From an uncultured Candidatus Saccharibacteria bacterium (GTDB lineage Bacteria; Patescibacteriota; Minisyncoccia; Phycocordibacterales; JAACPR01): a stretch of DNA of 45,116 nt. Position numbers and translations under genes: made by a program. The stretch covers positions 1 through 45,116 of the forward strand of contig CAZHOL010000004.1 in NCBI GenBank assembly GCA_964534415.1. Reading direction: 5' to 3'. The notes below the pieces were generated by a model. The model did not search any database. It saw only the letters and a program-made list of their open reading frames with translations, and was not told the DNA's origin. The stretch's first letter is position 1, and each line of letters opens with the position of its first letter. This document shows positions 4,159 to 45,112 of the stretch, one piece after another.

Positions 4159-4839
4159 ATGAAAGTATTACTGGTTGAGGACAATCTCTCGATTAGAAAT
4201 GTACTACGCATGAGTCTGGTGGCGGATGGCTTTACTGTCGACGAGGCTGACAATGGTGAGACGGGTTTTTATCTGGCACGAATAAATAGGTACGACATTA
4301 TAATTCTTGATAATGTTCTGCCGAAGAAAATGGGTAAAGCTGTGTGCGCAGATCTCAGGAGTTTGGGAATTCAAACTCCTATTTTATTGCTCTCCGCTGT
4401 AAATGACGCGCTGTCAAAAATTGATTTGTTGAACAGCGGTGCGGACGACTATGTAACAAAACCTTTTTCATACGAGGAATTAGTGGCTCGAATGCGTGCC
4501 CTGGTGCGACGCCCTGGGATAATACAGGACAATGTGCTCCGAGTTGGTAATCTGGTATTGAATATCGACAGACACGAGGTAAAGAAAAATAACAAGAGAA
4601 TTTACTTAACCAAAAAAGAATACAATCTCCTAACAATTTTAATGAAAAATCGCGGCAAGGTTCTGTCTCGTGCGGCAATTATGGAAAGCGCCTGGGACGA
4701 ACAATCGATGAATCCATTTTCAAACACTATCGAATCCCATATTTTGAATCTCAGAAAAAAACTAGGCGACCGTCGCAAGAACATGATCATGAGCATACCC
4801 GGTAGCGGATATAAATTCCTCGACCCACATAATAGCTAA
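4159..4839 (+). CDS. OmpR-family response regulator (receiver domain plus winged-helix DNA-binding domain)
   Basis: MKVLLVEDN start, IIILDNVLP acceptor Asp region, GADDYVTKPF, C-terminal wHTH (LTKKEYNLL, GSGYKF). The tracked start at 4123 is a TTG inside the promoter; the ATG at 4159 is preferred. Confidence 0.88.
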   Translation: MKVLLVEDNLSIRNVLRMSLVADGFTVDEADNGETGFYLARINRYDIIILDNVLPKKMGKAVCADLRSLGIQTPILLLSAVNDALSKIDLLNSGADDYVTKPFSYEELVARMRALVRRPGIIQDNVLRVGNLVLNIDRHEVKKNNKRIYLTKKEYNLLTILMKNRGKVLSRAAIMESAWDEQSMNPFSNTIESHILNLRKKLGDRRKNMIMSIPGSGYKFLDPHNS

Positions 4840-4842
4840 GAT

Positions 4843-5565
4843 ATGAGAAATATTTTTAACAAAAAAATATCCACATCAACCAGTGTGGAATCGTTTTCTC
4901 TAAAAGAAATCGGGAGTATTTCGTGTGGCCTATTACACGATCTCATTAATCCTATAAACGGGCTAACTCTATATTTAGAAACTTTGGACAAGAATCTATT
5001 CAAAGAATTGCTAATACCGATCAATGAAACGAGCGAGAATATTCGTACATTCATCAGAGTAATGCAAGGCGCGATGCACAACCCAAAACAAATGGAAATT
5101 ATCAACGTGTATAAAATTATTTCGCACATCGTTTCCCTCTTGCGTCACAAAGCCATCAGCAAAAATATTTCCATTGTTGTGGCCCAAGACACACAAAACG
5201 TTCTGATATTCGCTAACAAAATTAAAGTCTACCAAGTCTTCATCAATTTAGTTACGAACGCAATAGATTCGTTTGAAAAAGCTCCAGAAAGAGAAAAGAA
5301 AAACATATCCATTTCAATAACAAATAGCAACGGTCAGATTACAGTTGTGGTGAATGACAATGGTGCTGGAATTGAAAGGAGTAACCTAGACAAAATGTTT
5401 GTCAGGTCCTTTACCACAAAAAAGACCGGACTGGGAATAGGATTAATGCATACAAAATTTTTGGTCACGCGGGATTTACTAGGTACCATAAACGTTAAAA
5501 GCCAAATAGGTGTTGGGACAGAATTTCAAATTACTATTTCTAAGAAATTTTTAATTTGCAGATAG
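4843..5565 (+). CDS. Histidine kinase, soluble, DHp plus HATPase_c only (no sensor or TM domain)
   Basis: H-box GLLHDLINPINGL at residue ~32, N-box NLVTNAIDS, G-boxes NDNGAGI and GLGIGL. 240 aa. Starts 4 nt after the regulator stop. Confidence 0.8.
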   Translation: MRNIFNKKISTSTSVESFSLKEIGSISCGLLHDLINPINGLTLYLETLDKNLFKELLIPINETSENIRTFIRVMQGAMHNPKQMEIINVYKIISHIVSLLRHKAISKNISIVVAQDTQNVLIFANKIKVYQVFINLVTNAIDSFEKAPEREKKNISISITNSNGQITVVVNDNGAGIERSNLDKMFVRSFTTKKTGLGIGLMHTKFLVTRDLLGTINVKSQIGVGTEFQITISKKFLICR

Positions 5566-6888
5566 AATTCTGTACAAGGAATCTAATGCTACACGTTGCT
5601 GTTCTCCGGTATTCATATTTTTTACCGTAAAGGTATCGGTAGCGACTTCATCATCTCCAATGATAACAACAAAAGGAATGGCCTGTTTGTTTGCGTAATT
5701 TAATTTTTTCTTCATAGGCACTTCGTCCAAAAATATTTCAGAGTTTATGCCACGAGACCTCAACCCGCGCGCCAGAATTGAAGGTTTTTTCAAATCGGAT
5801 ATTAGTGGCACAATCAAAACCCGAGTCAAAGTTTTTTCTTCAGATTTAATTAGTCCTTTTTCTTTGAATGGAACAAACAATCTAGTTAATCCTAAACCTG
5901 CACCGACCCCAGGAATCTTTCTATCACCGAAACCGCTGAGCAATGTCTCGTATCTACCACCCGAACAAATTGAACCGAGACCGGTATCTTCGACCAAGAA
6001 TGTCTCAAAGACAGTTCCGCTGTAATAATCTAGACCGCGAACAATTGTTAGATCAATTTTAAAATAATCAGAAGGCACATCGAAATCCTCCAGGCAATTT
6101 ATCACCTGCACCAATTCATCCAAACCGCTTTTGAAAGTATCATTTTCAATATTTAGACTCTGTAGTTTAGCCAAAACATTTAAATTTGTGCCTGCAACAG
6201 AAACAAAATCCAGGATCTCATTCATCTGATCAACTGACAATTTTTCTTTTTGTAATAACTCGCGAACTTTGTCTGCACCGATCTTTGCCATTTTATCAAT
6301 GATGCGTAAAACATATGGCGCACGATCCTGCAAATTCAAGCTTTCGAGAAAGCCATTTAAAATTTTTCTGTTGCTAATCTTTACAACAAATGGACCAATG
6401 TTTAATTTGCTGAATGTTGTGTAAATTATGTTTATGATTTCTGCATCGTATTTCAAAGAGAGCTCGCCATCACCAACCACATCAATATCACATTGATAAA
6501 AATCTCTGTATCTGCCTCTCTGGGGTCTCTCTCCACGATAAACTCTGCCGATTTGATATTTTCTAAATGGAAAATTTAGTTCACGAGAATGTTCGCACAC
6601 ATACCTTGCAAAGGGTATCGTCAAATCGAATCGCAACGCCAAATCGTTATCCCCCTTTTTAATTCTATAAATCTCTTTCTCCGTATCTCCGCCAGCCTTG
6701 GCAAGCAGAATTTCTTCACGCTCTAGAACCGATGTGTCGAGTGGAATGTACCCAAAACTTTCGTAAATATTTTGAATTTTGGATTTCATCTTGTCAAAAG
6801 CAATTTGATCTTTGGGCAATAACTCTAAAATTCCTTGCAGTGCGCGGGTTGATAGTGTTTTCTTCTGTCTAAACATTTTGAAAAACAT
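5551..6888 (-). CDS. hisS: Histidine--tRNA ligase
   Basis: Class II motifs RYRDFYQCDIDVVG and GGRYETL, plus a C-terminal anticodon-binding domain. 445 aa. Confidence 0.93.
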   Translation of the reverse strand: MFFKMFRQKKTLSTRALQGILELLPKDQIAFDKMKSKIQNIYESFGYIPLDTSVLEREEILLAKAGGDTEKEIYRIKKGDNDLALRFDLTIPFARYVCEHSRELNFPFRKYQIGRVYRGERPQRGRYRDFYQCDIDVVGDGELSLKYDAEIINIIYTTFSKLNIGPFVVKISNRKILNGFLESLNLQDRAPYVLRIIDKMAKIGADKVRELLQKEKLSVDQMNEILDFVSVAGTNLNVLAKLQSLNIENDTFKSGLDELVQVINCLEDFDVPSDYFKIDLTIVRGLDYYSGTVFETFLVEDTGLGSICSGGRYETLLSGFGDRKIPGVGAGLGLTRLFVPFKEKGLIKSEEKTLTRVLIVPLISDLKKPSILARGLRSRGINSEIFLDEVPMKKKLNYANKQAIPFVVIIGDDEVATDTFTVKNMNTGEQQRVALDSLYRILSAN

Positions 6889-8392: not shown

Positions 8393-9667
8393 TTAAGAAT
8401 TTTTTGGTTTTTCTGTCTTGATAATTAAGGTTTTTTCTATTCTGCGTACGTCCGCCAACAATTCCGCACGAGACTCGTTGAAAAGAATAATATTGCAAAT
8501 ACTTGAACCTCCGTTTTTTGCATAGAGGCATTTGTCGCCGATTTTGGCTTTAACAGAAATTTTCTTTAATGATTTTAGATCTTGAATTTTTAGAATTCCG
8601 GTTAGATTTGTTAAAACGCCCTCTGTTTTCGGGAAGAATTTCATCGCCGCAGAATATCCTTTGACTTTTTTTGGAATAATTGGTTTTCGAGGAATTCGAA
8701 TCAATACATCGTTCATTGAGTGATTGATATCGAAAGAATTTTTATATAAATCATGGCGAAATCCTCCAACACGCGGGCCGATTTCGATCACTTTCCAACC
8801 ATCTTCTGTGCGCATCAATTCAATATGCGCTGTCGAACTACGCAATCCCAGCGCGCGAACGGATTGTGAAGCAACTTCTTCGGCAGCAGCAATCGAACTC
8901 TTTTTCAAAAGTGTTGGTGTCATTTGTAAATATCCAAAAAAATCATCGAAACCAATAGATCGTCCAGTTTTAATGTGAACAAAAGGACAGAAATATATTT
9001 TGCCTTTTGAATTAACGTAGGCGTCTACCGAATACATTTCACCTTCCATAAATTGTTCGACGAGCACTTGTGGTTTTGAGTGTCTAGATTTTTCTTCATA
9101 GACTTTTTGAATCTTCTTGAAAGTCTTTTGCAGAACTTCTTTTAACTCCTGCTCATGAAAACATATGCTGACCAACAGGCTCGCAGTTAGACTGTTCGGC
9201 TTCAAAATTAATGGGAAACCAATTTTCTGTTTTATTTTTTCTAAAGTCTCATCTGAACTGTCTTCAACCACTACAAATTTTGGTGTAATATTTTTGTCAT
9301 AGGCACGAAATCTCTTTCGCATTTGAATTTTATTGCAACTCCACAGTAGAGATTCGGTGGTAGGTGTCCTCAAATATGGCACGTTTGGAATAACTTTAAT
9401 AAATTCATCAATATTTTCCTCACCCCGACATGTGACTGCTAATAGTTCGTCATAAATTGGCAAAAGTGCCTTTTGAATGGATTCACTCTTGGAGAAATCA
9501 CATTCCAAATCAAAATCAACCGTGCGTTTTTTTCTGTCCGCGGTATCCTCAATATTTCTAATTACTGCCACACGATAATGCTGGCCCGTTTCTGCGGTGT
9601 GTTTCTTTAGGCTCGTAACAAAGTCGCCTGGGACATTCTGAACAAAGAGAATAATATTCTTTGACAT
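8393..9667 (-). CDS. ATP-grasp domain protein (amino-acid ligase-like)
   Basis: 424 aa. GFPLILKPNSLTAS, LVEQFMEGEMYSVDAYV, AHIELMRTEDGWKVIEIGPRVGG are typical ATP-grasp blocks. Confidence 0.75.
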   Translation of the reverse strand: MSKNIILFVQNVPGDFVTSLKKHTAETGQHYRVAVIRNIEDTADRKKRTVDFDLECDFSKSESIQKALLPIYDELLAVTCRGEENIDEFIKVIPNVPYLRTPTTESLLWSCNKIQMRKRFRAYDKNITPKFVVVEDSSDETLEKIKQKIGFPLILKPNSLTASLLVSICFHEQELKEVLQKTFKKIQKVYEEKSRHSKPQVLVEQFMEGEMYSVDAYVNSKGKIYFCPFVHIKTGRSIGFDDFFGYLQMTPTLLKKSSIAAAEEVASQSVRALGLRSSTAHIELMRTEDGWKVIEIGPRVGGFRHDLYKNSFDINHSMNDVLIRIPRKPIIPKKVKGYSAAMKFFPKTEGVLTNLTGILKIQDLKSLKKISVKAKIGDKCLYAKNGGSSICNIILFNESRAELLADVRRIEKTLIIKTEKPKNS

Positions 9668-9770
9668 GAAGATTGGAGAGTTATTTTTAGTTCTAAAATT
9701 GTATCAAACTTACACAAAAAAGCAAGTGAACAACACTAGGGCAAAATATCATGAAAACTTAACGATATTC

Positions 9771-9779
9771 TGCTATAAT
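9771..9779 (+). promoter_or_regulatory. Extended -10 promoter (TGcTATAAT) 8 nt upstream of the RimK-like ATG
   Basis: cTGcTATAATttgttattATG read directly. Confidence 0.55.
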
Positions 9780-9787
9780 TTGTTATT

Positions 9788-10678
9788 ATGTTTGGAAGAA
9801 AAAATAACAAAAAAATTCTATTGGTAAATGGTGGGAGCAAGCAATTCGGTATGGATTTCCTCAAACACGCTGAGATGGCAGGATTAGAGTGCAGAAAAAT
9901 TCGAACCTATGTAAATTCGTCTATATTATTGGAAAAAAATAAAATTACTTTTTTTGAATCAGGAGAATTGATTGATCTGCAAAATTACAAATATGCATTT
10001 ATAAGAGTAAAATCCATCGGCACACAACTCACTTCCCTATTTTGCGAAATTCTAAACAATTTGAAAATTGATTACAACGACAAAAGCAATGTTGAGCACA
10101 CGATGGGAGATGAAAAAATTACACAGATGTTGAGATTCGCCATGAATAATGTGCCAATACCAAAAACTTTTATCTTTTCTGATCGGTCATTTGAGAAAAA
10201 CATAGAGGTTTTCAGAGAAAACTTTTCTTTCCCTTGTGTACTTAAAACAAATGGTAGCAAAGGTCGTGCTGTTTGGAAAATTAATTCAGAGAATGAGATC
10301 CGTGAAATTGTTTCTAACACAAAAAAAGAAATTTATATGGTGCAGGAGTATATACCAAATCAATATGACGTGCGCGTTGTTGTTGCATATGGAAAAATCG
10401 TCGGAGCAATTGAGAGACACTCATCAGACGGTTTCTATAATAATGTTGCTATGGGCGGCCTAACAAAAATCGCGACACTAAATAAAATTGAAAGAAAGCT
10501 ATCACTGCAAGTCTGCCAGATCATGAAACTCGAGCTGGGTGGTGTAGATTTTGTCAGAACAAATGATGGAATCAAGTTTTTTGAAGTTAATAAAGGTCCA
10601 GTGGTTTATGGATTCCAAGATGCGACAGGAATTAATGTGCCCGAGGTTTTGGTGCAAAATATCAAGAAATTAATCTAG
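9788..10678 (+). CDS. RimK-type ATP-grasp ligase (alpha-L-glutamate ligase-like)
   Basis: 296 aa. FPCVLKTNGSKGRAVWKI, MVQEYIPNQYDVRVVV, LGGVDFV match the RimK/GshB-type ATP-grasp layout. Confidence 0.8.
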   Translation: MFGRKNNKKILLVNGGSKQFGMDFLKHAEMAGLECRKIRTYVNSSILLEKNKITFFESGELIDLQNYKYAFIRVKSIGTQLTSLFCEILNNLKIDYNDKSNVEHTMGDEKITQMLRFAMNNVPIPKTFIFSDRSFEKNIEVFRENFSFPCVLKTNGSKGRAVWKINSENEIREIVSNTKKEIYMVQEYIPNQYDVRVVVAYGKIVGAIERHSSDGFYNNVAMGGLTKIATLNKIERKLSLQVCQIMKLELGGVDFVRTNDGIKFFEVNKGPVVYGFQDATGINVPEVLVQNIKKLI

Positions 10679-10679
10679 A

Positions 10680-12449
10680 ATGCGATATAAATTTGAAAAT
10701 CATCTATTCAGAGAAAGGCAATCAGATAGTGTAGATTTTTGGCTAAGTGAAATATCGAAATTAGAAAACGGAGAAACTCAAAAACACACATTAACGCCTG
10801 ATGAAATCGCAAAACTTGATACATTTGAAAGTGATTTGACCACAGAGTGGCAAAGTTTTGCTGAACTAAAATCTGTTATGTTATCTTTGGATCTAGATTT
10901 TTTACAAACCGAACCCGGTATTACAGCTTTCAGAAAGATATTTGGTTCAGAAATAAAAGATGAGGAAATCGCAAATTGGATGTTAATGAATCCTGAAATA
11001 ATTCAGGCAAACATTGATGCTGTAGAAAATGAAATAGAAAAAAAATCTCAAGAATTTCAAATGGAGAGAGTCGTCAATCAACTGAAATCGAGAATTAATA
11101 GTGACGGTACTATTGGAGACACTTCTGATATAGATCCCCCTAACAACTTTGGAATACTTGTGAATACAGAACAAATGGCAGAAAAGATTACAGCCATGCG
11201 AGCAACAAAAAATAGACTAAAGGCACTATTATCAAAATTTAGCAACCCTGGCGACAACCTTGAATATGCCAAGCGAGTACTAGTAGAAATATATTTGAAA
11301 AGAATTAATGTCTCAATTGCAAAGTTTTATCTATTTGCAAAAAGTGTCAAAGAGAAATCCGATAAATTTGGATATGCAAATTTATCTGTTTCAGAAAAAA
11401 CAATTTTATCCGAAGTAAATTTATCTCTTGATCACGACGTTCAGTTAACTAAAATAGATAAATTTATTTTTGGAGCTTCGCGGGAAGTTGATGAGGCGAC
11501 GCAAAACTATAATTCTTTATCATCGGATCTACTGAGCTATGCCAAACACCTCGATGAATTGCGATCAAAAATTAACATCAGAGAATCGATCGAACGAATG
11601 GGGCTAGATCCCGAGAAAGTACTCGAGAAAAATATATCTCCAGATGACCTGAAGAAGTTCGCGGATGTATTACTCGAAAAATATGGTCTAATCTCCAGCA
11701 CCTCTCAACCATGGAAATATGAAATTAAAAAAAGAAGAACATTTTCTGTGCAAGGAGAAATCAAAACAATTAATGGGGTCAATATCCCCAGAAATATTTT
11801 AGATGTGATGTCAGTTCTACTTGGTCATGAAATTGAGGGGCACGTCCTTCAACACGAAAATAGTTCTAAAATTCCCCTAAAAATATTCTCTGAATTCGAT
11901 GGAGGCGGCAGATCATCATTATTTGCTGAAGGTGGCGCCATGTACATGCAAGATAAAGTCACGAGAGAATTATTCGGTTTCGAAAACCTACCCAAAACCT
12001 CTTACATCAAAACTTTGGCAAAAAGATTATCTGGCGGAAACTTTATTGATTGCATGAAGGTATATTTTGAAAGCACGAATGCCGAAGACCTCGCTGATCT
12101 TACTGCTGGCAAAATCGACAAGCAAAAATATGATGAGATTGTTGAGCGCAATTTGAAGACGGCTGTTTCAAGCACAAAAAGAATATTTAAATACGGAGAC
12201 CTGAGAAAATCTCGAATAGGTATATCTACAAACTCAAAAGACCTGGCGTATCTTGAGCAAAAAAGAGTTCTCGATAAAATGGCAGGTACGCCTTTTTTCA
12301 AGCTTGCATTCGTAAGTGGAATGAATTTGGAAACCGCTCACCATCTAATTGATTTAGGTCTTTTGAAGCTTGAAGATATCAAAGAGCCCAGGACAATGAC
12401 TGCCGACATGTGGACGGAAATCAAAGACAACTACAAACTTCATCAATAG
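10680..12449 (+). CDS. DUF1704 / MATCAP-like putative metallocarboxypeptidase (QEGLA-motif family)
   Basis: 589 aa. LLGHEIEGHVLQHEN (HExxxH), LFAEGGAMYMQ at the QEGLA position, KDLAYLEQ near the C-terminus. The ATG is 1 nt after the RimK-like stop. Confidence 0.65.
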   Translation: MRYKFENHLFRERQSDSVDFWLSEISKLENGETQKHTLTPDEIAKLDTFESDLTTEWQSFAELKSVMLSLDLDFLQTEPGITAFRKIFGSEIKDEEIANWMLMNPEIIQANIDAVENEIEKKSQEFQMERVVNQLKSRINSDGTIGDTSDIDPPNNFGILVNTEQMAEKITAMRATKNRLKALLSKFSNPGDNLEYAKRVLVEIYLKRINVSIAKFYLFAKSVKEKSDKFGYANLSVSEKTILSEVNLSLDHDVQLTKIDKFIFGASREVDEATQNYNSLSSDLLSYAKHLDELRSKINIRESIERMGLDPEKVLEKNISPDDLKKFADVLLEKYGLISSTSQPWKYEIKKRRTFSVQGEIKTINGVNIPRNILDVMSVLLGHEIEGHVLQHENSSKIPLKIFSEFDGGGRSSLFAEGGAMYMQDKVTRELFGFENLPKTSYIKTLAKRLSGGNFIDCMKVYFESTNAEDLADLTAGKIDKQKYDEIVERNLKTAVSSTKRIFKYGDLRKSRIGISTNSKDLAYLEQKRVLDKMAGTPFFKLAFVSGMNLETAHHLIDLGLLKLEDIKEPRTMTADMWTEIKDNYKLHQ

Positions 12450-12450
12450 A

Positions 12451-14031
12451 TTATCTACCCAACAATCTCAACAATTTCCTGCTTCTCTTCTCCATTTCAT
12501 CTACATAGATTTTGAAGTCGTCGATTCTATTTAATTTTCCGTCTTGCAAGATATACAAACTATCTACTGCTGTTTTTTCAACAAAAAATCGATCGTGCGT
12601 AACAGTTAATACTGTGCCATGAAATTCTTTTAAAGCCTTCTCAAGCGCTTCACCCGCCTCGAGATCCAAATGGTTTGTAGGTTCATCTAAAATCAAAACG
12701 TTAACTCCTTCCAAAGCAAAATATGCAAGCAACAAACGAGCTCGGCTTCCTGGGCTCAAATATTTAATTTTAATTCCAACTTGAAATTCACTGAAACCGA
12801 AATGTAAAAGATGTTCAGTCAAAACTTCCTTTGACTGATAATTTTTTTCCATCAAGAATTGCACTGGTGATAGATCGCGAGGCAAGCTATCGTGCTCCTG
12901 CATCAAGTTTCCAATTTTCGCCCCTTCCTGAATTTCAATTTCTCCCTCAATTTTCGGAATGACTCCTGTGATAGTTTTTAGAATTGTAGATTTTCCAGAA
13001 CCATTTAATCCGAGAATACAAATTCTGCTACCGAATGTAACCGATAGATTAATTGGACCAACACGAAAATCATCGTATCCGCAGATGACATTCAGTAACG
13101 AAATGTCTTTCGGTGCACCAACATCGATTTTGGGAATATCGACTTTAAACGCTCGACGTGTTGGAATCTCTTCAATTATTTCCATACGACCCATACGTCC
13201 ATAAATCACTTGTGCATCTTTCAGAGAATTTGCAGCACGATTTCGTTTGAATCCGCGCAAAATCTTGTCCTTGTCAGTACCTTGCCATTTCATTCCTTTT
13301 CGAGCATCTTCTTTTTTCTGTTGAGCGAGCAATCTCAGCCTCTTCAACTCCTCTTTCTGTAATTTGATATCAATACTATTTCGGCGTAACTCTTTTTCTT
13401 TTTGAAGCAAATAATCAGAATATTTTCCTGCGGTGATTTTCAAAGTGCGAGTTTTCCAATCGATTTCAAAAATCTTTTTAGAAACGTTGTCGAGAAACTT
13501 TTTATCATGTGAAACCACAATGAAAGCAGAGTCTGTGTTTTGCAAGAAATTTTCCAACCAAATTAATGCTGGCAAATCCAAATTGTTTGTTGGTTCGTCT
13601 AGCAATAACAGATCGGGCTTCTTTAGCAACAATGCTGTTAAAAATACTTTTGTCTTCTGGCCACTCGAAAGCAAACCAATCTTTTTCTCCTTAATTTCTG
13701 TTGGCAAAGCAAAACCTGCAAACATAATTTCGATATTTCTATAGAATTCATCACCGCTCATTTCTGTGTAGCTTTCAATAAATTTCAGAACATTTTCTCG
13801 ATTATGCGAATCTGGGTCCTGAGGCAAAAAACCAATTGTGGTTCCCTTGTGATACTGAATTGTGCCCGTCTTGTCATTATCAATTCCCGCGAGCAACTTC
13901 AAAAGAGTAGTTTTTCCAGTACCATTAAAACCAACCAGGGCGATTTTGTTCCCCTTTTCTACAGTGAAAGAAATGTTATTAAGAATCCTTTCGCTGTCAT
14001 AATATTTGTTTAAGTTAGAAACTTTTAACAT
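12451..14031 (-). CDS. ABC-F family ATPase (two ABC cassettes, no TM domain)
   Basis: GFNGTGKTT / LSSGQKTKV / LLLLDEPTN and GLNGSGKST / LSPGSRARL / VLILDEPTN, separated by a charged linker. Confidence 0.9.
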   Translation of the reverse strand: MLKVSNLNKYYDSERILNNISFTVEKGNKIALVGFNGTGKTTLLKLLAGIDNDKTGTIQYHKGTTIGFLPQDPDSHNRENVLKFIESYTEMSGDEFYRNIEIMFAGFALPTEIKEKKIGLLSSGQKTKVFLTALLLKKPDLLLLDEPTNNLDLPALIWLENFLQNTDSAFIVVSHDKKFLDNVSKKIFEIDWKTRTLKITAGKYSDYLLQKEKELRRNSIDIKLQKEELKRLRLLAQQKKEDARKGMKWQGTDKDKILRGFKRNRAANSLKDAQVIYGRMGRMEIIEEIPTRRAFKVDIPKIDVGAPKDISLLNVICGYDDFRVGPINLSVTFGSRICILGLNGSGKSTILKTITGVIPKIEGEIEIQEGAKIGNLMQEHDSLPRDLSPVQFLMEKNYQSKEVLTEHLLHFGFSEFQVGIKIKYLSPGSRARLLLAYFALEGVNVLILDEPTNHLDLEAGEALEKALKEFHGTVLTVTHDRFFVEKTAVDSLYILQDGKLNRIDDFKIYVDEMEKRSRKLLRLLGR

Positions 14032-35027: not shown

Positions 35028-35903
35028 CTATTTTTTCATAGATTCTATGAAGATGTCAATTTCTCCAGCCAGTACACCATTAATATCTGAAGTTTCAACC
35101 TTGGTTCGATGATCTTTGACCAGTTTGTACGGATGCATTACGTATGAGCGGATTTGGCTTCCCCATTCTGCGCTGGTGGTTTTGGAGATAGACATACCAG
35201 ATTGATGGGCTTCCTCCTCTGATTTTCGCAATGCGAATAATTTTCCTTTCAAAATTTCCAAAGCTTTTTCTTTGTTTTGTGCCTGACTACGTTCGTTACT
35301 TACGAATGCCGAAAGTTTTGTGGCTTTGTGGATGACGCGAACTGCAGTTTCTCTTTTGTTGACGTTTTGTCCACCTGGGCCGGATGCCTTGGTGAACTCA
35401 ACTTCAATCTCATCTGGCGAAATTTTTATGGAGTCATCAGATTTATCGAATTGAGGGACAACTTCGACCATAGAGAATGAAGTTTGCCTCTTGGCCGCCG
35501 CATTGAAAGGAGAAATTCTCACCAGTCGGTGAACGCCAGATTCGTGTTTCAAATTTCCGTAGGCATTTTTGCCAACGATTTCAAATGTCGCCGTTCGATA
35601 TCCACCATTATCATTTTTGTTTTCATACAAAAAATTAATCAAATAGTTGTGCTTCTCTGCATATTTGGAATACATATTCAAAAGAATCGCCGACCAGTCC
35701 TCGGCATCGTCACCTCCAACTCCAGAAAAAATCGTCACGACAGCGTTACCTTTGTCGTATTTTCCTATACCCTCGAGTGAATCTTTCAAATCCTGCATTT
35801 CGCGAATTTTTGATTGTGCCAAATTTTTATCATTCCAAAAATCTGCCTGCATCATGGCGTTTTCGATTTCAGAGATTTTCTTTTGAATTTCGTCTTTATT
35901 CAT
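35028..35903 (-). CDS. prfB: Peptide chain release factor 2 (short form, single ORF, no frameshift site)
   Basis: SPF tripeptide (RISPFNAAAKRQTSF), GGQ (SGPGGQNVNK). Start set at MNKDEIQ; the tracked N-terminal extension is a translated tRNA gene. Confidence 0.9.
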   Translation of the reverse strand: MNKDEIQKKISEIENAMMQADFWNDKNLAQSKIREMQDLKDSLEGIGKYDKGNAVVTIFSGVGGDDAEDWSAILLNMYSKYAEKHNYLINFLYENKNDNGGYRTATFEIVGKNAYGNLKHESGVHRLVRISPFNAAAKRQTSFSMVEVVPQFDKSDDSIKISPDEIEVEFTKASGPGGQNVNKRETAVRVIHKATKLSAFVSNERSQAQNKEKALEILKGKLFALRKSEEEAHQSGMSISKTTSAEWGSQIRSYVMHPYKLVKDHRTKVETSDINGVLAGEIDIFIESMKK

Positions 35904-35905
35904 CT

Positions 35906-35981
35906 TGGAGCCAATAACCGGGATTGAACCGGTGACCTCGCCCTTACCAAGGACGTGCTCTACCAACTGAGCTATATTGGC
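35906..35981 (-). tRNA. tRNA-Thr (anticodon GGT), with encoded CCA
   Basis: Manual cloverleaf: acceptor GCCAATA/TATTGGC, anticodon arm CGTCC-TTGGTAA-GGGCG, T arm CACCGG-TTCAATC-CCGGT, 3' TCCA. Confidence 0.92.
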
Positions 35982-35993
35982 AATTATCAAACT

Positions 35994-36002
35994 ATTCTAT
36001 CA
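35994..36002 (-). promoter_or_regulatory. Extended -10 promoter (TGaTAGAAT) of the tRNA-Thr-prfB-ftsEX-pyrG unit
   Basis: Minus strand cTGaTAGAATagtttgataatt, then the tRNA 5' end. Confidence 0.5.
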
Positions 36003-36016
36003 GGAAATGAGGAAGT

Positions 36017-36046
36017 AAAAAAGCGGTCCCTTTCGAGACCGCTTTT
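36017..36046 (-). terminator. Intrinsic terminator of cassette B (bidirectional shape)
   Basis: AGCGGTC-8 nt-GACCGCT flanked by an A-run and a T-run, 14 nt after the stop of the 72-aa ORF. Confidence 0.7.
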
Positions 36047-36059
36047 CTTGGGCCGTTGA

Positions 36060-36278
36060 TCAACCATGCTTCGTCAATTCAGCCCCTTTACCACCCCGCA
36101 GGCCGATTCGACCCGTGGAATCACGATTTCTCCTGACAATGTCATCCAAATCAGGATGGGGAACGACGGGCATTCCTGGCCCCTGGAAAATTTCCGCCCC
36201 GGTCGTGGGGTCGGTCCTGAGGAATTTCGGCCCGGCCACCGTGACACACCCGGATCTTTTACCACTCGGCTTTTTCAT
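36060..36278 (-). CDS. Hypothetical 72-aa Gly/Pro-rich protein (GC-rich cassette B)
   Basis: SD GAGAGGTGGAGGT 8 nt upstream of the ATG at 36278, with its own promoter and terminator. Four frames are open across the segment. No family recognised. Confidence 0.4.
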   Translation of the reverse strand: MKKPSGKRSGCVTVAGPKFLRTDPTTGAEIFQGPGMPVVPHPDLDDIVRRNRDSTGRIGLRGGKGAELTKHG

Positions 36279-36340
36279 CTGTACTAACCTCCACCTCTCG
36301 TCATCACACACCATGTGCAACATACGAAAGTCTGCAAAAT

Positions 36341-36368
36341 ACTTTACCACATAATTATATTAAATCAA
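36341..36368 (-). promoter_or_regulatory. Promoter of cassette B, TTGATT-16-TAAAGT
   Basis: Minus strand TTGATTtaatataattatgtggTAAAGT. Confidence 0.5.
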
Positions 36369-36385
36369 CTTTTTCCACAATTCAG

Positions 36386-36458
36386 AGCCACCTCGCAGAA
36401 TCGAACTGCGGACCTACGCGCTACGAGTGCGTTGCTCTGCCAACTGAGCTAAGGTGGC
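36386..36458 (-). tRNA. tRNA-Thr (anticodon CGT)
   Basis: Manual cloverleaf: acceptor GCCACCT/AGGTGGC, anticodon loop CTCGTAG, T arm CGCAG-TTCGATT-CTGCG. One A-C mismatch closes the anticodon stem. Confidence 0.9.
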
Positions 36459-44827: not shown

Positions 44828-44832
44828 TGTTG

Positions 44833-44906
44833 TGTCGACGGGTGGAATCGAACCACCGACCTTAGCTTTATGAGTGCTATGCTCTAACCTTCTGAGCTAC
44901 GTCGAC
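44833..44906 (-). tRNA. tRNA with CAT anticodon, elongator type (Met, or Ile if lysidine-modified)
   Basis: Manual cloverleaf: acceptor GTCGACG/CGTCGAC with G1-C72, anticodon loop CTCATAA, T arm GGTGG-TTCGATT-CCACC. Confidence 0.88.
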
Positions 44907-44915
44907 ATGACCTAC

Positions 44916-44944
44916 AATATAATACGTTTTTCGCATTTCCGCAA
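44916..44944 (-). promoter_or_regulatory. tRNA-Met promoter TTGCGG-17-TATATT
   Basis: Minus strand TTGCGGaaatgcgaaaaacgtatTATATT, 9 nt upstream of the tRNA 5' end. Confidence 0.55.
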
Positions 44945-45041
44945 CGCCTTCTCACATACGAGAACGAGATGCATTTTCACGATAGTGAAAATGACATCGT
45001 GCTTGAAAAACAGGTAATGCGAAGGCAAACTTCAATAATTG

Positions 45042-45112
45042 TTGCGGGGCCCGGATTTGCACCGGGGTCTAGAGGTTATGAGCCTCTCGAGGTACTACTC
45101 CTCTACCCCGCG
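45042..45112 (-). tRNA. Initiator-type tRNA (anticodon CAT) with an atypical D-loop and T-loop
   Basis: C1-A72 mismatch (CGCGGGG/CCCCGCA), anticodon arm AGAGG-CTCATAA-CCTCT, T arm CCCGG-TGCAAAT-CCGGG, D arm GAGG-AGTAGTA-CCTC. Close to E. coli tRNA-fMet in the acceptor stem and anticodon loop. Confidence 0.8.

Follow-up and report, generated by a model that had tools for sequence, protein, structure and literature searches.

The window analyzed here, a 45,116-nt stretch of a contig from an uncultured Candidatus Saccharibacteria bacterium (CAZHOL010000004.1, assembly GCA_964534415.1), holds three adjacent genes that encode two ATP-grasp ligases and a putative metallopeptidase. An initial annotation had read them as a candidate module for writing and erasing C-terminal amino acid tails, in which both ligases were wired to a peptidase of the MATCAP/DUF1704 type. 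Its coordinates for the open reading frames (ORFs), the 1-nt junction between the RimK-type ligase and peptidase genes, the 120-bp divergent region, and the motifs all proved exact. The features of the locus are as follows.

8393-9667, minus strand: L-amino-acid-ligase-type (LAL-type) ATP-grasp gene, an ORF of 424 amino acids (aa), divergent from the RimK-like gene
9668-9787, no strand: divergent intergenic region, 120 bp between the LAL-type and RimK-like genes
9751-9779, plus strand: promoter-like site with an extended -10 element (TG-n-TATAAT), 10/12 with the TG in a consensus scan
9788-10678, plus strand: RimK-type ATP-grasp ligase gene, an ORF of 296 aa, the candidate writer
10676-10682, plus strand: stop/start junction, with the RimK-like TAG at 10676-10678, 1 nt, and the peptidase ATG at 10680
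10680-12449, plus strand: MATCAP/DUF1704-like peptidase gene, an ORF of 589 aa
10680-11615, plus strand: N-terminal region of the 589-aa protein (aa 1-312), predicted to be helical, family-specific
10704-10721, plus strand: LYPER-type motif of the N-terminal region, near-invariant in the family, LFRER in the window protein
11616-12449, plus strand: gluzincin catalytic domain homologous to MATCAP/DUF1704 (aa 313-589), a putative carboxypeptidase and candidate eraser
11826-11843, plus strand: HEIEGH (HExxxH; H383, E384, and H388 within aa 383-388) in the translation, predicted metal-binding and catalytic motif
11922-11939, plus strand: FAEGGA, equivalent to the EEG/QEGLA motif, with E417 as the predicted third metal ligand
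12237-12260, plus strand: KDLAYLEQ, with Y524 and E526 invariant, equivalent to KD.VYLEG of DUF1704 and KDQVYLDG of MATCAP

The homologues found for each ORF, together with the synteny of the trio in relatives, indicate that all three are real genes and not chance ORFs. The block of HisRS, PIF1, LAL-type ligase, RimK-like ligase, peptidase, and ABC-F is preserved in relatives with 62-63% identity, one of which carries the label Saccharibacteria, and neither the window proteins nor those of these close relatives are given a name by the sources. The arrangement at the RimK-like/peptidase junction suggests translational coupling. The same 1-nt spacing is repeated in the relatives L001-L005, and in other lineages the ligase/peptidase junctions are often tight or overlapping, for example with a 4-nt overlap in L027 and a 7-nt spacing in L013. 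Since only 1 nt separates the end of the peptidase gene from the stop of a convergent ABC-F gene (12449-12451), 9788-12449 is a two-gene unit. The promoter-like site ends 9 nt before the RimK-like ATG; the 120-bp intergenic region is not enriched over shuffles for promoter matches, and the site at 9751-9779 is no more than a match to the consensus.

The 589-aa protein is a remote homologue of DUF1704 and MATCAP

The assignment of the 589-aa protein to the DUF1704/MATCAP type held for the superfamily, but the thresholds of PF08014 and TIGR02421 were not reached. Direct scans against Pfam and NCBIfam returned no match to either model, none even at E ≤ 0.1, and neither phmmer nor the family profiles retrieved MATCAP from the PDB sequences. 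The relationship was seen by profile-profile comparison using hhalign: the profile of the peptidase family matched an alignment of 16 true DUF1704 sequences with 99.3% probability (E 7.9e-21, 235 columns), and a single DUF1704 sequence from a Paceibacterota contig (L009) with 94.3%. The DUF1704 profile in turn reached the human MATCAP structures 7Z5G, 7Z5H, and 7Z6S with E values from 6e-18 to 9e-17 (best 6.4e-18).

These alignments bear out the motif equivalences drawn in the initial annotation, in which FAEGGA had been paired with EEGLA and KDLAYLEQ with KD.VYLEG. HEIEGH of the family is in register with HELGVH of DUF1704 and HEIGTH of MATCAP, so that E384 corresponds to MATCAP E281. AEGGA aligns with EEGLA of both DUF1704 and MATCAP; E417 is the equivalent of the second Glu, and the first Glu of the EEG motif is replaced by Ala in the window peptidase. 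KDLAYLEQ aligns with xDLVYLEG of DUF1704 and KDQVYLDG of MATCAP. The HExxxH motif, the Glu of EEG(L)A, and the KD.VYLEG block thus align between the window peptidase and MATCAP1/TMCP1, KIAA0895/TMCP2 (PF08014), and the bacterial DUF1704/TIGR02421 "QEGLA motif protein". The E281A mutant of MATCAP is inactive, and the EEG motif has been described as the putative third metal ligand in KIAA0895L (PMC10499314).

When aa 190-589 were modelled (predicted local distance difference test score, pLDDT, 80.4), the top three PDB matches found by Foldseek were MATCAP 7Z5G, with a probability of 1.00, and part of aa 190-312 aligned with the MATCAP N-lobe. The next matches were M32 carboxypeptidases and ACE (M2). 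In the AlphaFold2 (AF2) model, H383, E384, and H388 lie on helix 373-395, E417 is at the beginning of the helix that follows, and a three-stranded sheet precedes them; this predicted arrangement of helix and sheet around HExxxH and E417 is the gluzincin layout. Enzymes of families M32 (Taq/TcMCP-1) and M2 (ACE/ACE2), the next-best folds, are all-helical proteins of ~500-600 aa with a central-helix active site, as is the window peptidase. However, they carry HExxH and not HExxxH, and they show TM scores of only 0.2-0.3 and no sequence-level relationship to the window peptidase. Profile-profile and structural evidence, and not a direct hidden Markov model (HMM) scan, therefore identify the 589-aa protein as a genuine remote DUF1704/MATCAP homologue.

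The peptidase family is represented by 11 clusters in the annotated database, and a search with a 71-sequence profile returned the same 11 proteins. In an exhaustive library clustered at 50% identity, by comparison, at least 480 representatives were found, 224 of them with E ≤ 1e-30; nearly all are of ~600 aa and, in this census, they come from Patescibacteria only. G265, H383, E384, H388, E417, Y524, and E526 are invariant across the 71 members, which share ~20-30% identity, and R13, E50, Y74, G80, N210, D260, and G265 are invariant or near-invariant in the N-terminal region, which the AF2 model predicts to be helical with high pLDDT. The hhalign match to DUF1704 begins only at aa 313, leaving the conserved N-terminal ~310 aa unaligned, and the window peptidase is ~170-190 aa longer than the DUF1704 proteins that we collected (~400-440 aa). 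PF08014 was matched by 2 of the 71 members and TIGR02421 by 3, one member (P0008) lying barely above the curated DUF1704 cut-off (29.8 versus 27 bits); DUF1704 was the only family with more than one member matching. Judged by family threshold, the 589-aa protein falls outside PF08014 and belongs to a separate, longer, unannotated sister family.

Both forms are found on the L009 contig (5926-10621), where a long-form member of 656 aa is followed by a true PF08014 DUF1704 protein (421-439 aa, E 3.7e-14; NCBI name [quoted passage not shown]) and then by a convergent LAL-type homologue. Two paralogous peptidases of the MATCAP superfamily are thus located side by side. At two other loci (L025, 7959-9822; L026, 7962-9819), two overlapping ORFs take the place of a single peptidase gene, reflecting a pseudogene with a frameshift or an error in the assembly.

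The partner gene encodes a RimK-family ligase

The description of the 296-aa protein as a RimK-type ATP-grasp enzyme was confirmed by Pfam, in which it matched PF08443 RimK with an E value of 5.6e-29 (101.5 bits versus a cut-off of 21). Of the profile HMM searches that had been proposed, those with RimK/ATP-grasp models gave matches, but the direct scan of the 589-aa protein with the DUF1704 model did not. The closest solved structures to the 296-aa protein are those of RimK (5zct and 4iwx, 2e-15), followed by LysX/ArgX; the LysX model was matched with an E value of 6e-30 and 104 bits, far under its cut-off of 276. A set of 34 RimK-like proteins linked to the peptidase conserves the catalytic ATP/Mg residues K110, K153, Q186, R196, D254, E266, and N268, and alignment to RimK shows that the GVD and EVN motifs are kept in the 296-aa protein. 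On this basis, it can be classified as a RimK-family ATP-grasp ligase of the alpha-L-glutamate-ligase type, with active-site residues predicted to be intact.

The ligase-peptidase pair is conserved across rearrangements

To survey the neighborhoods of the peptidase family, genome contigs were scanned with the family profile, and distant loci were annotated with iterated HMMs together with Pfam and NCBIfam. De-duplication left 26 informative loci. This census had been set beforehand as a test of the initial annotation, and ligase-peptidase adjacency was indeed conserved in relatives: in ~22 of the 26 loci, 1-4 RimK-like ligase genes adjoin the peptidase gene, on either side and in either orientation. 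The peptidase gene (MP in the shorthand below) and the RimK-like genes occur in at least six distinct arrangements.

(i) LAL<>RimK>MP, Saccharibacteria
(ii) MP>DUF1704 <LAL, L009
(iii) 7TM>RloC::RloA-like>RimK(1-3)>MP
(iv) MP> <RimKx3<RloC-like<7TM
(v) MP>RimK> <RimK
(vi) MP>RimK/TTL-like
(vii) as (iii), with a cyanophycin-synthetase M-domain-like Mur ligase inserted

Arrangement (iii) is common to one lineage with conserved YebC-RuvC-cassette-PBP1A synteny. The conserved unit is the RimK-like ligase and the peptidase, as a tightly coupled pair.

Some loci deserve separate mention. Upstream of the peptidase gene, L011 (412-1014) and L012 (3442-4044), which have no ligase gene nearby, carry a Peptidase_M15_4 (D-Ala-D-Ala carboxypeptidase-like) gene; L013, with the same downstream synteny as L011 and L012, has a 256-aa RimK/tubulin tyrosine ligase (TTL)-like ATP-grasp protein encoded between the peptidase and metallo-β-lactamase-fold genes. 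We also considered reading the census as covering the candidate phyla radiation (CPR) plus predatory bacteria. This reading was rejected, as the loci labelled Bdellovibrionales or Micavibrio resemble Moranbacteria and have the same synteny. In L010, L011, L016, L017, L021, L024, and L025, PBP1A and RuvC are 55-64% and 52-62% identical, respectively, to those of a Moranbacteria locus, as they are in true Moranbacteria/Parcubacteria loci. The labels "uncultured Bdellovibrionales", "Pseudobdellovibrionaceae", and "Micavibrio sp." on those metagenome-assembled genomes are probably wrong.

The divergent LAL-type ligase is peripheral

The amino-acid-ligase character given to the 424-aa protein by the initial annotation is supported by a match to PF13535 ATP-grasp_4 above the cut-off (E 1e-22, 80.9 bits) and by its best PDB matches, the L-amino-acid ligase BL00235 (3vot, 1.7e-12) and BacD (1e-6), but LAL_C2 scored 24.7 bits, below its cut-off of 29.4. 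The scores against NCBIfam equivalogs were far below the cut-offs. The ATP-grasp residues K113, K156, E204, E283, E295, and R299 are conserved among 39 homologues.

We then took the LAL-type ligase as the starting point of a reverse census of 35 homologue loci (45-82% identity). A RimK-like neighbor was present in 5 of these and a DUF1704 neighbor in 2, making 7 of 35 with either, and the long-form peptidase was found beside none of the 35. Two ORFs of similar length to the peptidase near LAL-type homologues were examined as peptidase candidates and rejected, being an HlyD-like protein and PolX. Many of the loci carry tandem LAL paralogues and there is no common synteny; in the metagenome loci L045, L051, L055, L060, L064, and L067, arrays of 2-3 paralogues are sometimes followed by a RimK-like gene. 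Such arrays suggest multistep peptide assembly that does not involve the peptidase. We therefore rejected the LAL-type ligase as a core partner of the peptidase. Gene neighborhoods indicate that it is peripheral, with a weak and lineage-specific link to the RimK-like/peptidase pair, and the claim that two ligases are wired to the peptidase is consequently an overstatement: it stands for the RimK-like ligase and not for the LAL-type one.

Rlo-like cassettes surround the pair in other Patescibacteria

In most other loci of the peptidase family, the pair is accompanied by a seven-transmembrane (7TM) RloB-like protein and a retropepsin. The cassette proteins beside the peptidase relatives match RloB (NF052267), TIGR02291, and RloA3 (NF052264); among the cassette ligases, hits were to TIGR02291 "alpha-L-glutamate ligase-like" and to rimK_fam. 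None of the proteins matched an RloC model, and we treated the TIGR02291 protein (alpha-L-glutamate ligase-like) as the RloC counterpart. In L014 (5498-6925) and its equivalents, an N-terminal TIGR02291/ATPgrasp_ST ligase-like domain is joined to a C-terminal RloA/RimB-like retropepsin in a fusion of ~470 aa. In the adjoining 7TM protein, the match to RloB is confined to the membrane part, and the transglutaminase domain is absent. In the window and its close relatives, no retropepsin-like peptidase, 7TM RloB protein, RloC-like gene, or Mur-ligase gene was found.

Other features of the window

Genes are packed very tightly in the window, and a histidine-kinase-like ORF (4843-5565, plus strand) shares 15 nt (5551-5565) with the 3' end of HisRS (5551-6888, minus strand). 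Two tRNA-Thr genes with the anticodons GGT and CGT are present (35906-36458), and a pair of closely spaced tRNA-Met genes is located near the end of the window (44832-45112). The tRNA-Thr(GGT) gene (35906-35981) overlaps a mechanically called TTG-start ORF (35028-35990), the 5' end of which is for this reason probably over-extended.

Discussion

The gene structure, the homology, the intact catalytic residues, and the conserved linkage of the two genes come from the sequence work presented here. By analogy with characterized systems, we consider it somewhat probable that the pair comprises an adder of C-terminal amino acids (the RimK-like ligase) and a remover (the MATCAP-like peptidase) that act on one acceptor C terminus. 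RimK polyglutamylates the C terminus of bS6, and RimB trims the added tail (PMC11957051). MATCAP/TMCP1-2 remove C-terminal Tyr or Glu and shorten polyglutamate chains (PMC10499314). We infer from such enzymes the chemistry, the amino acid added, the antagonism, and the acceptor.

The core unit is the two-gene operon 9788-12449, which encodes a RimK-family ligase and a coupled, putatively cytoplasmic and zinc- or otherwise metal-dependent carboxypeptidase of ~600 aa. Using ATP, the ligase would activate the acceptor's C-terminal alpha-carboxylate as an acyl-phosphate and add amino acids singly, the added residues most likely being glutamate or another acidic residue. The MATCAP-like enzyme would trim the same C terminus, with HExxxH and Glu417 forming the metal site and Tyr524 assisting the transition state, and the two enzymes would jointly set the length of the tail or recycle it. 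As acceptor, a protein tail, comparable to that of bS6 for RimK, is possible, and so is an oligo- or poly-amino acid that is free or associated with the envelope. In most other Patescibacteria, the pair lies within a cassette that includes the RloB-like 7TM protein and the RloC-like ligase fused to an RloA/RimB-like retropepsin; the latter would be a second eraser, cleaving internally where the first trims from the end. The divergent LAL-type ligase could supply a dipeptide or an initiating residue, although its linkage is weak.

Several observations weigh against this interpretation. The 296-aa protein scored 137.7 bits against TIGR00768 rimK_fam in NCBIfam, narrowly under the cut-off of 143.4, and 63.2 bits against the bS6-ligase equivalog (PRK10446), far under the cut-off of 331. 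In the alignment, moreover, the RimK motif RSNLHRGG is YNNVAMGG. Given both scores and this replacement, glutamate specificity is not established, and the altered motif means that substrate specificity may differ. For the peptidase, the full-length AF2 model (pLDDT 86.7) gave only weak Foldseek matches to ACE2-type helical gluzincins and none to MATCAP, and the similarity of the aa 190-589 model to MATCAP is modest (TM 0.38-0.45, E 0.008-0.02). The window ORFs include neither bS6 nor a protein with an acidic tail, and hence no local candidate for the acceptor. No ligase was found near the peptidase in four loci (L010, L011, L012, and L030), and since much of the cassette conservation comes from one syntenic lineage, the independent observations are fewer than the locus count. 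Finally, adjacency speaks for functional linkage and not for opposing activities.

A possible, if tentative, alternative is that the product of the ligases is a free, nonribosomal acidic peptide or a polyamide (poly-alpha-glutamate, for example, or a cyanophycin-like polymer) that would serve in osmoprotection, in the envelope, or as a store. Its turnover or length control would then fall to the MATCAP-like enzyme as an exo-hydrolase, and the RloB-like 7TM protein would be an exporter or anchor. This would suit the position of most family members, which lie in cassettes with the 7TM protein and the RloC::RloA-like fusion and have up to four ligases per cassette. In L032, a Mur-ligase-family gene of 406 aa (4503-5723) lies between the RimK-like and peptidase genes and matches the cyanophycin synthetase M domain (E 1e-30), and in L033, from Andersenbacteria, a true DUF1704 gene is flanked by a cyanophycin-synthetase G-domain-like ATP-grasp gene and another ATP-grasp gene. 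PBP1A adjoins the cassette in many loci, an adjacency that may nevertheless be the inherited synteny of one lineage. RloA cleaves runs of at least 8 Glu, and mutations in RloB and RloC suppress the loss of RloA; the authors of that work named free polyglutamate as a possible substrate and linked the system to envelope and osmotic phenotypes (PMC11957051). RimK is also reported to synthesize poly-alpha-Glu in vitro (PMC10375531). The Rlo-like cassettes and cyanophycin-synthetase-like parts suggest that a protein tail and a peptide polymer, whether free or associated with the envelope, are equally plausible acceptors. Against polymer metabolism, 7TM, RloC-like, and Mur-ligase genes are all missing from the window and from its relatives in Saccharibacteria. 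The core chemistry is in any case the same as in a writer-eraser pair acting on a protein, the acceptor being the sole difference.

The two enzymes might instead catalyze consecutive steps and not opposing ones. In amino-group carrier protein pathways (LysW), a RimK-family ligase and a metallo-hydrolase bracket the route, and a system in the style of LysW/LysX/LysK would have the ligase load a metabolite on the C-terminal Glu of a carrier and the metallopeptidase release the product. We find this very improbable. The window ligase does match LysX (6e-30) and the LysX/ArgX structures, but with 104 bits against a cut-off of 276; LysK belongs to family M20, which is unrelated to MATCAP; and neither the window nor the cassettes contain a LysW-like small ORF, a kinase, a reductase, or an aminotransferase.

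Saccharibacteria are episymbionts, and the LAL-type and RimK-type ligases could be imagined to make a bacilysin- or rhizocticin-like di- or tripeptide for host-bacterium interaction, with the peptidase maturing or detoxifying it. The kinship of the 424-aa ligase to the dipeptide-forming BL00235 and BacD fits such a role, as do the tandem LAL-type arrays and their occurrence beside RimK-like genes in 5 of 35 loci. The trio has no adjacent warhead-biosynthesis or exporter genes, however, and it is the RimK type, not the usually unlinked LAL type, that is the conserved partner of the peptidase; we consider a bioactive peptide very improbable. Least probable of all is incidental adjacency, with the peptidase being a peptide-scavenging carboxypeptidase of an auxotroph and the ligases unrelated housekeeping enzymes: CPR bacteria depend on imported peptides and the peptidase stands alone in four loci, but ligase and peptidase genes stay together through rearrangements, inversions, and shifts in the number of ligase copies in Saccharibacteria, Paceibacterota, Moranbacteria-type, and other Patescibacteria, with tight or overlapping junctions.

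A writer-eraser pair would have close parallels in known systems. In the RimK-RimB (± RimA) system for bS6, a RimK-family ATP-grasp enzyme is likewise in an operon with a tail-shortening peptidase (PMC11957051, PMC10092738), a role that we infer here for the MATCAP-like enzyme, and the best structural homologues of the window ligase are RimK. The window ligase is nevertheless not the bS6-ligase equivalog (63 versus 331 bits), and the RimK-RimB eraser is a retropepsin endopeptidase, whereas that of the window would be a gluzincin homologous to exo-acting carboxypeptidases. In RloABC of Pseudomonas aeruginosa, RloB is a 7TM protein with an inactive transglutaminase, RloC an ATP-grasp protein, and RloA a secreted retropepsin. 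The cassettes of the peptidase relatives hold RloB-, TIGR02291-, and RloA3-matching proteins; they differ from RloABC in that the RloB-like protein has no transglutaminase domain, in the addition of 1-3 extra RimK paralogues and a MATCAP-like gene, and in the fusion of the retropepsin to the ligase, because of which it is presumably cytoplasmic. The window locus has no Rlo-like part. Tubulin TTL/TTLL systems also use an ATP-grasp ligase as partner, as at the window locus; the window peptidase, being prokaryotic, would have a substrate other than tubulin.

The logic of a writer ligase and an eraser peptidase is already known. New here are a MATCAP-type enzyme as a putative bacterial eraser, the long family itself, hitherto unannotated, and the setting of its genes in Rlo-like cassettes. 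No paper in the literature searched combines DUF1704/MATCAP with ATP-grasp/RimK, although a mention in the amidoligase survey of Iyer et al. (2009) is not excluded. It is conceivable, if rather doubtful, that the logic of the tubulin code, in which ATP-grasp enzymes write C-terminal Glu or Tyr and MATCAP-type enzymes erase it, pre-existed in prokaryotes as an operon-encoded, physically coupled module that reversibly tails a ribosomal, division, or envelope protein as a switch in Patescibacteria; the eukaryotic TTL/TTLL-MATCAP system would be its descendant or a parallel reuse.

To our knowledge, bacterial proteins of the MATCAP/DUF1704 superfamily are essentially uncharacterized apart from the label "flavohemoglobin expression-modulating". 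They now gain a testable functional context. The work also defines a protein family of considerable size, so far unannotated and numbering at least 480 clusters (50% identity), in Patescibacteria, bacteria with reduced genomes and little room for dispensable genes. If the pair does write and erase C-terminal tails, it would be a second bacterial kind of reversible C-terminal tailing after RimK-RimB and a prokaryotic counterpart of the tubulin tyrosination/glutamylation cycle. Moreover, as the MATCAP-like peptidases are linked to the recently described Rlo poly-glutamate module, solving either system could explain the other.

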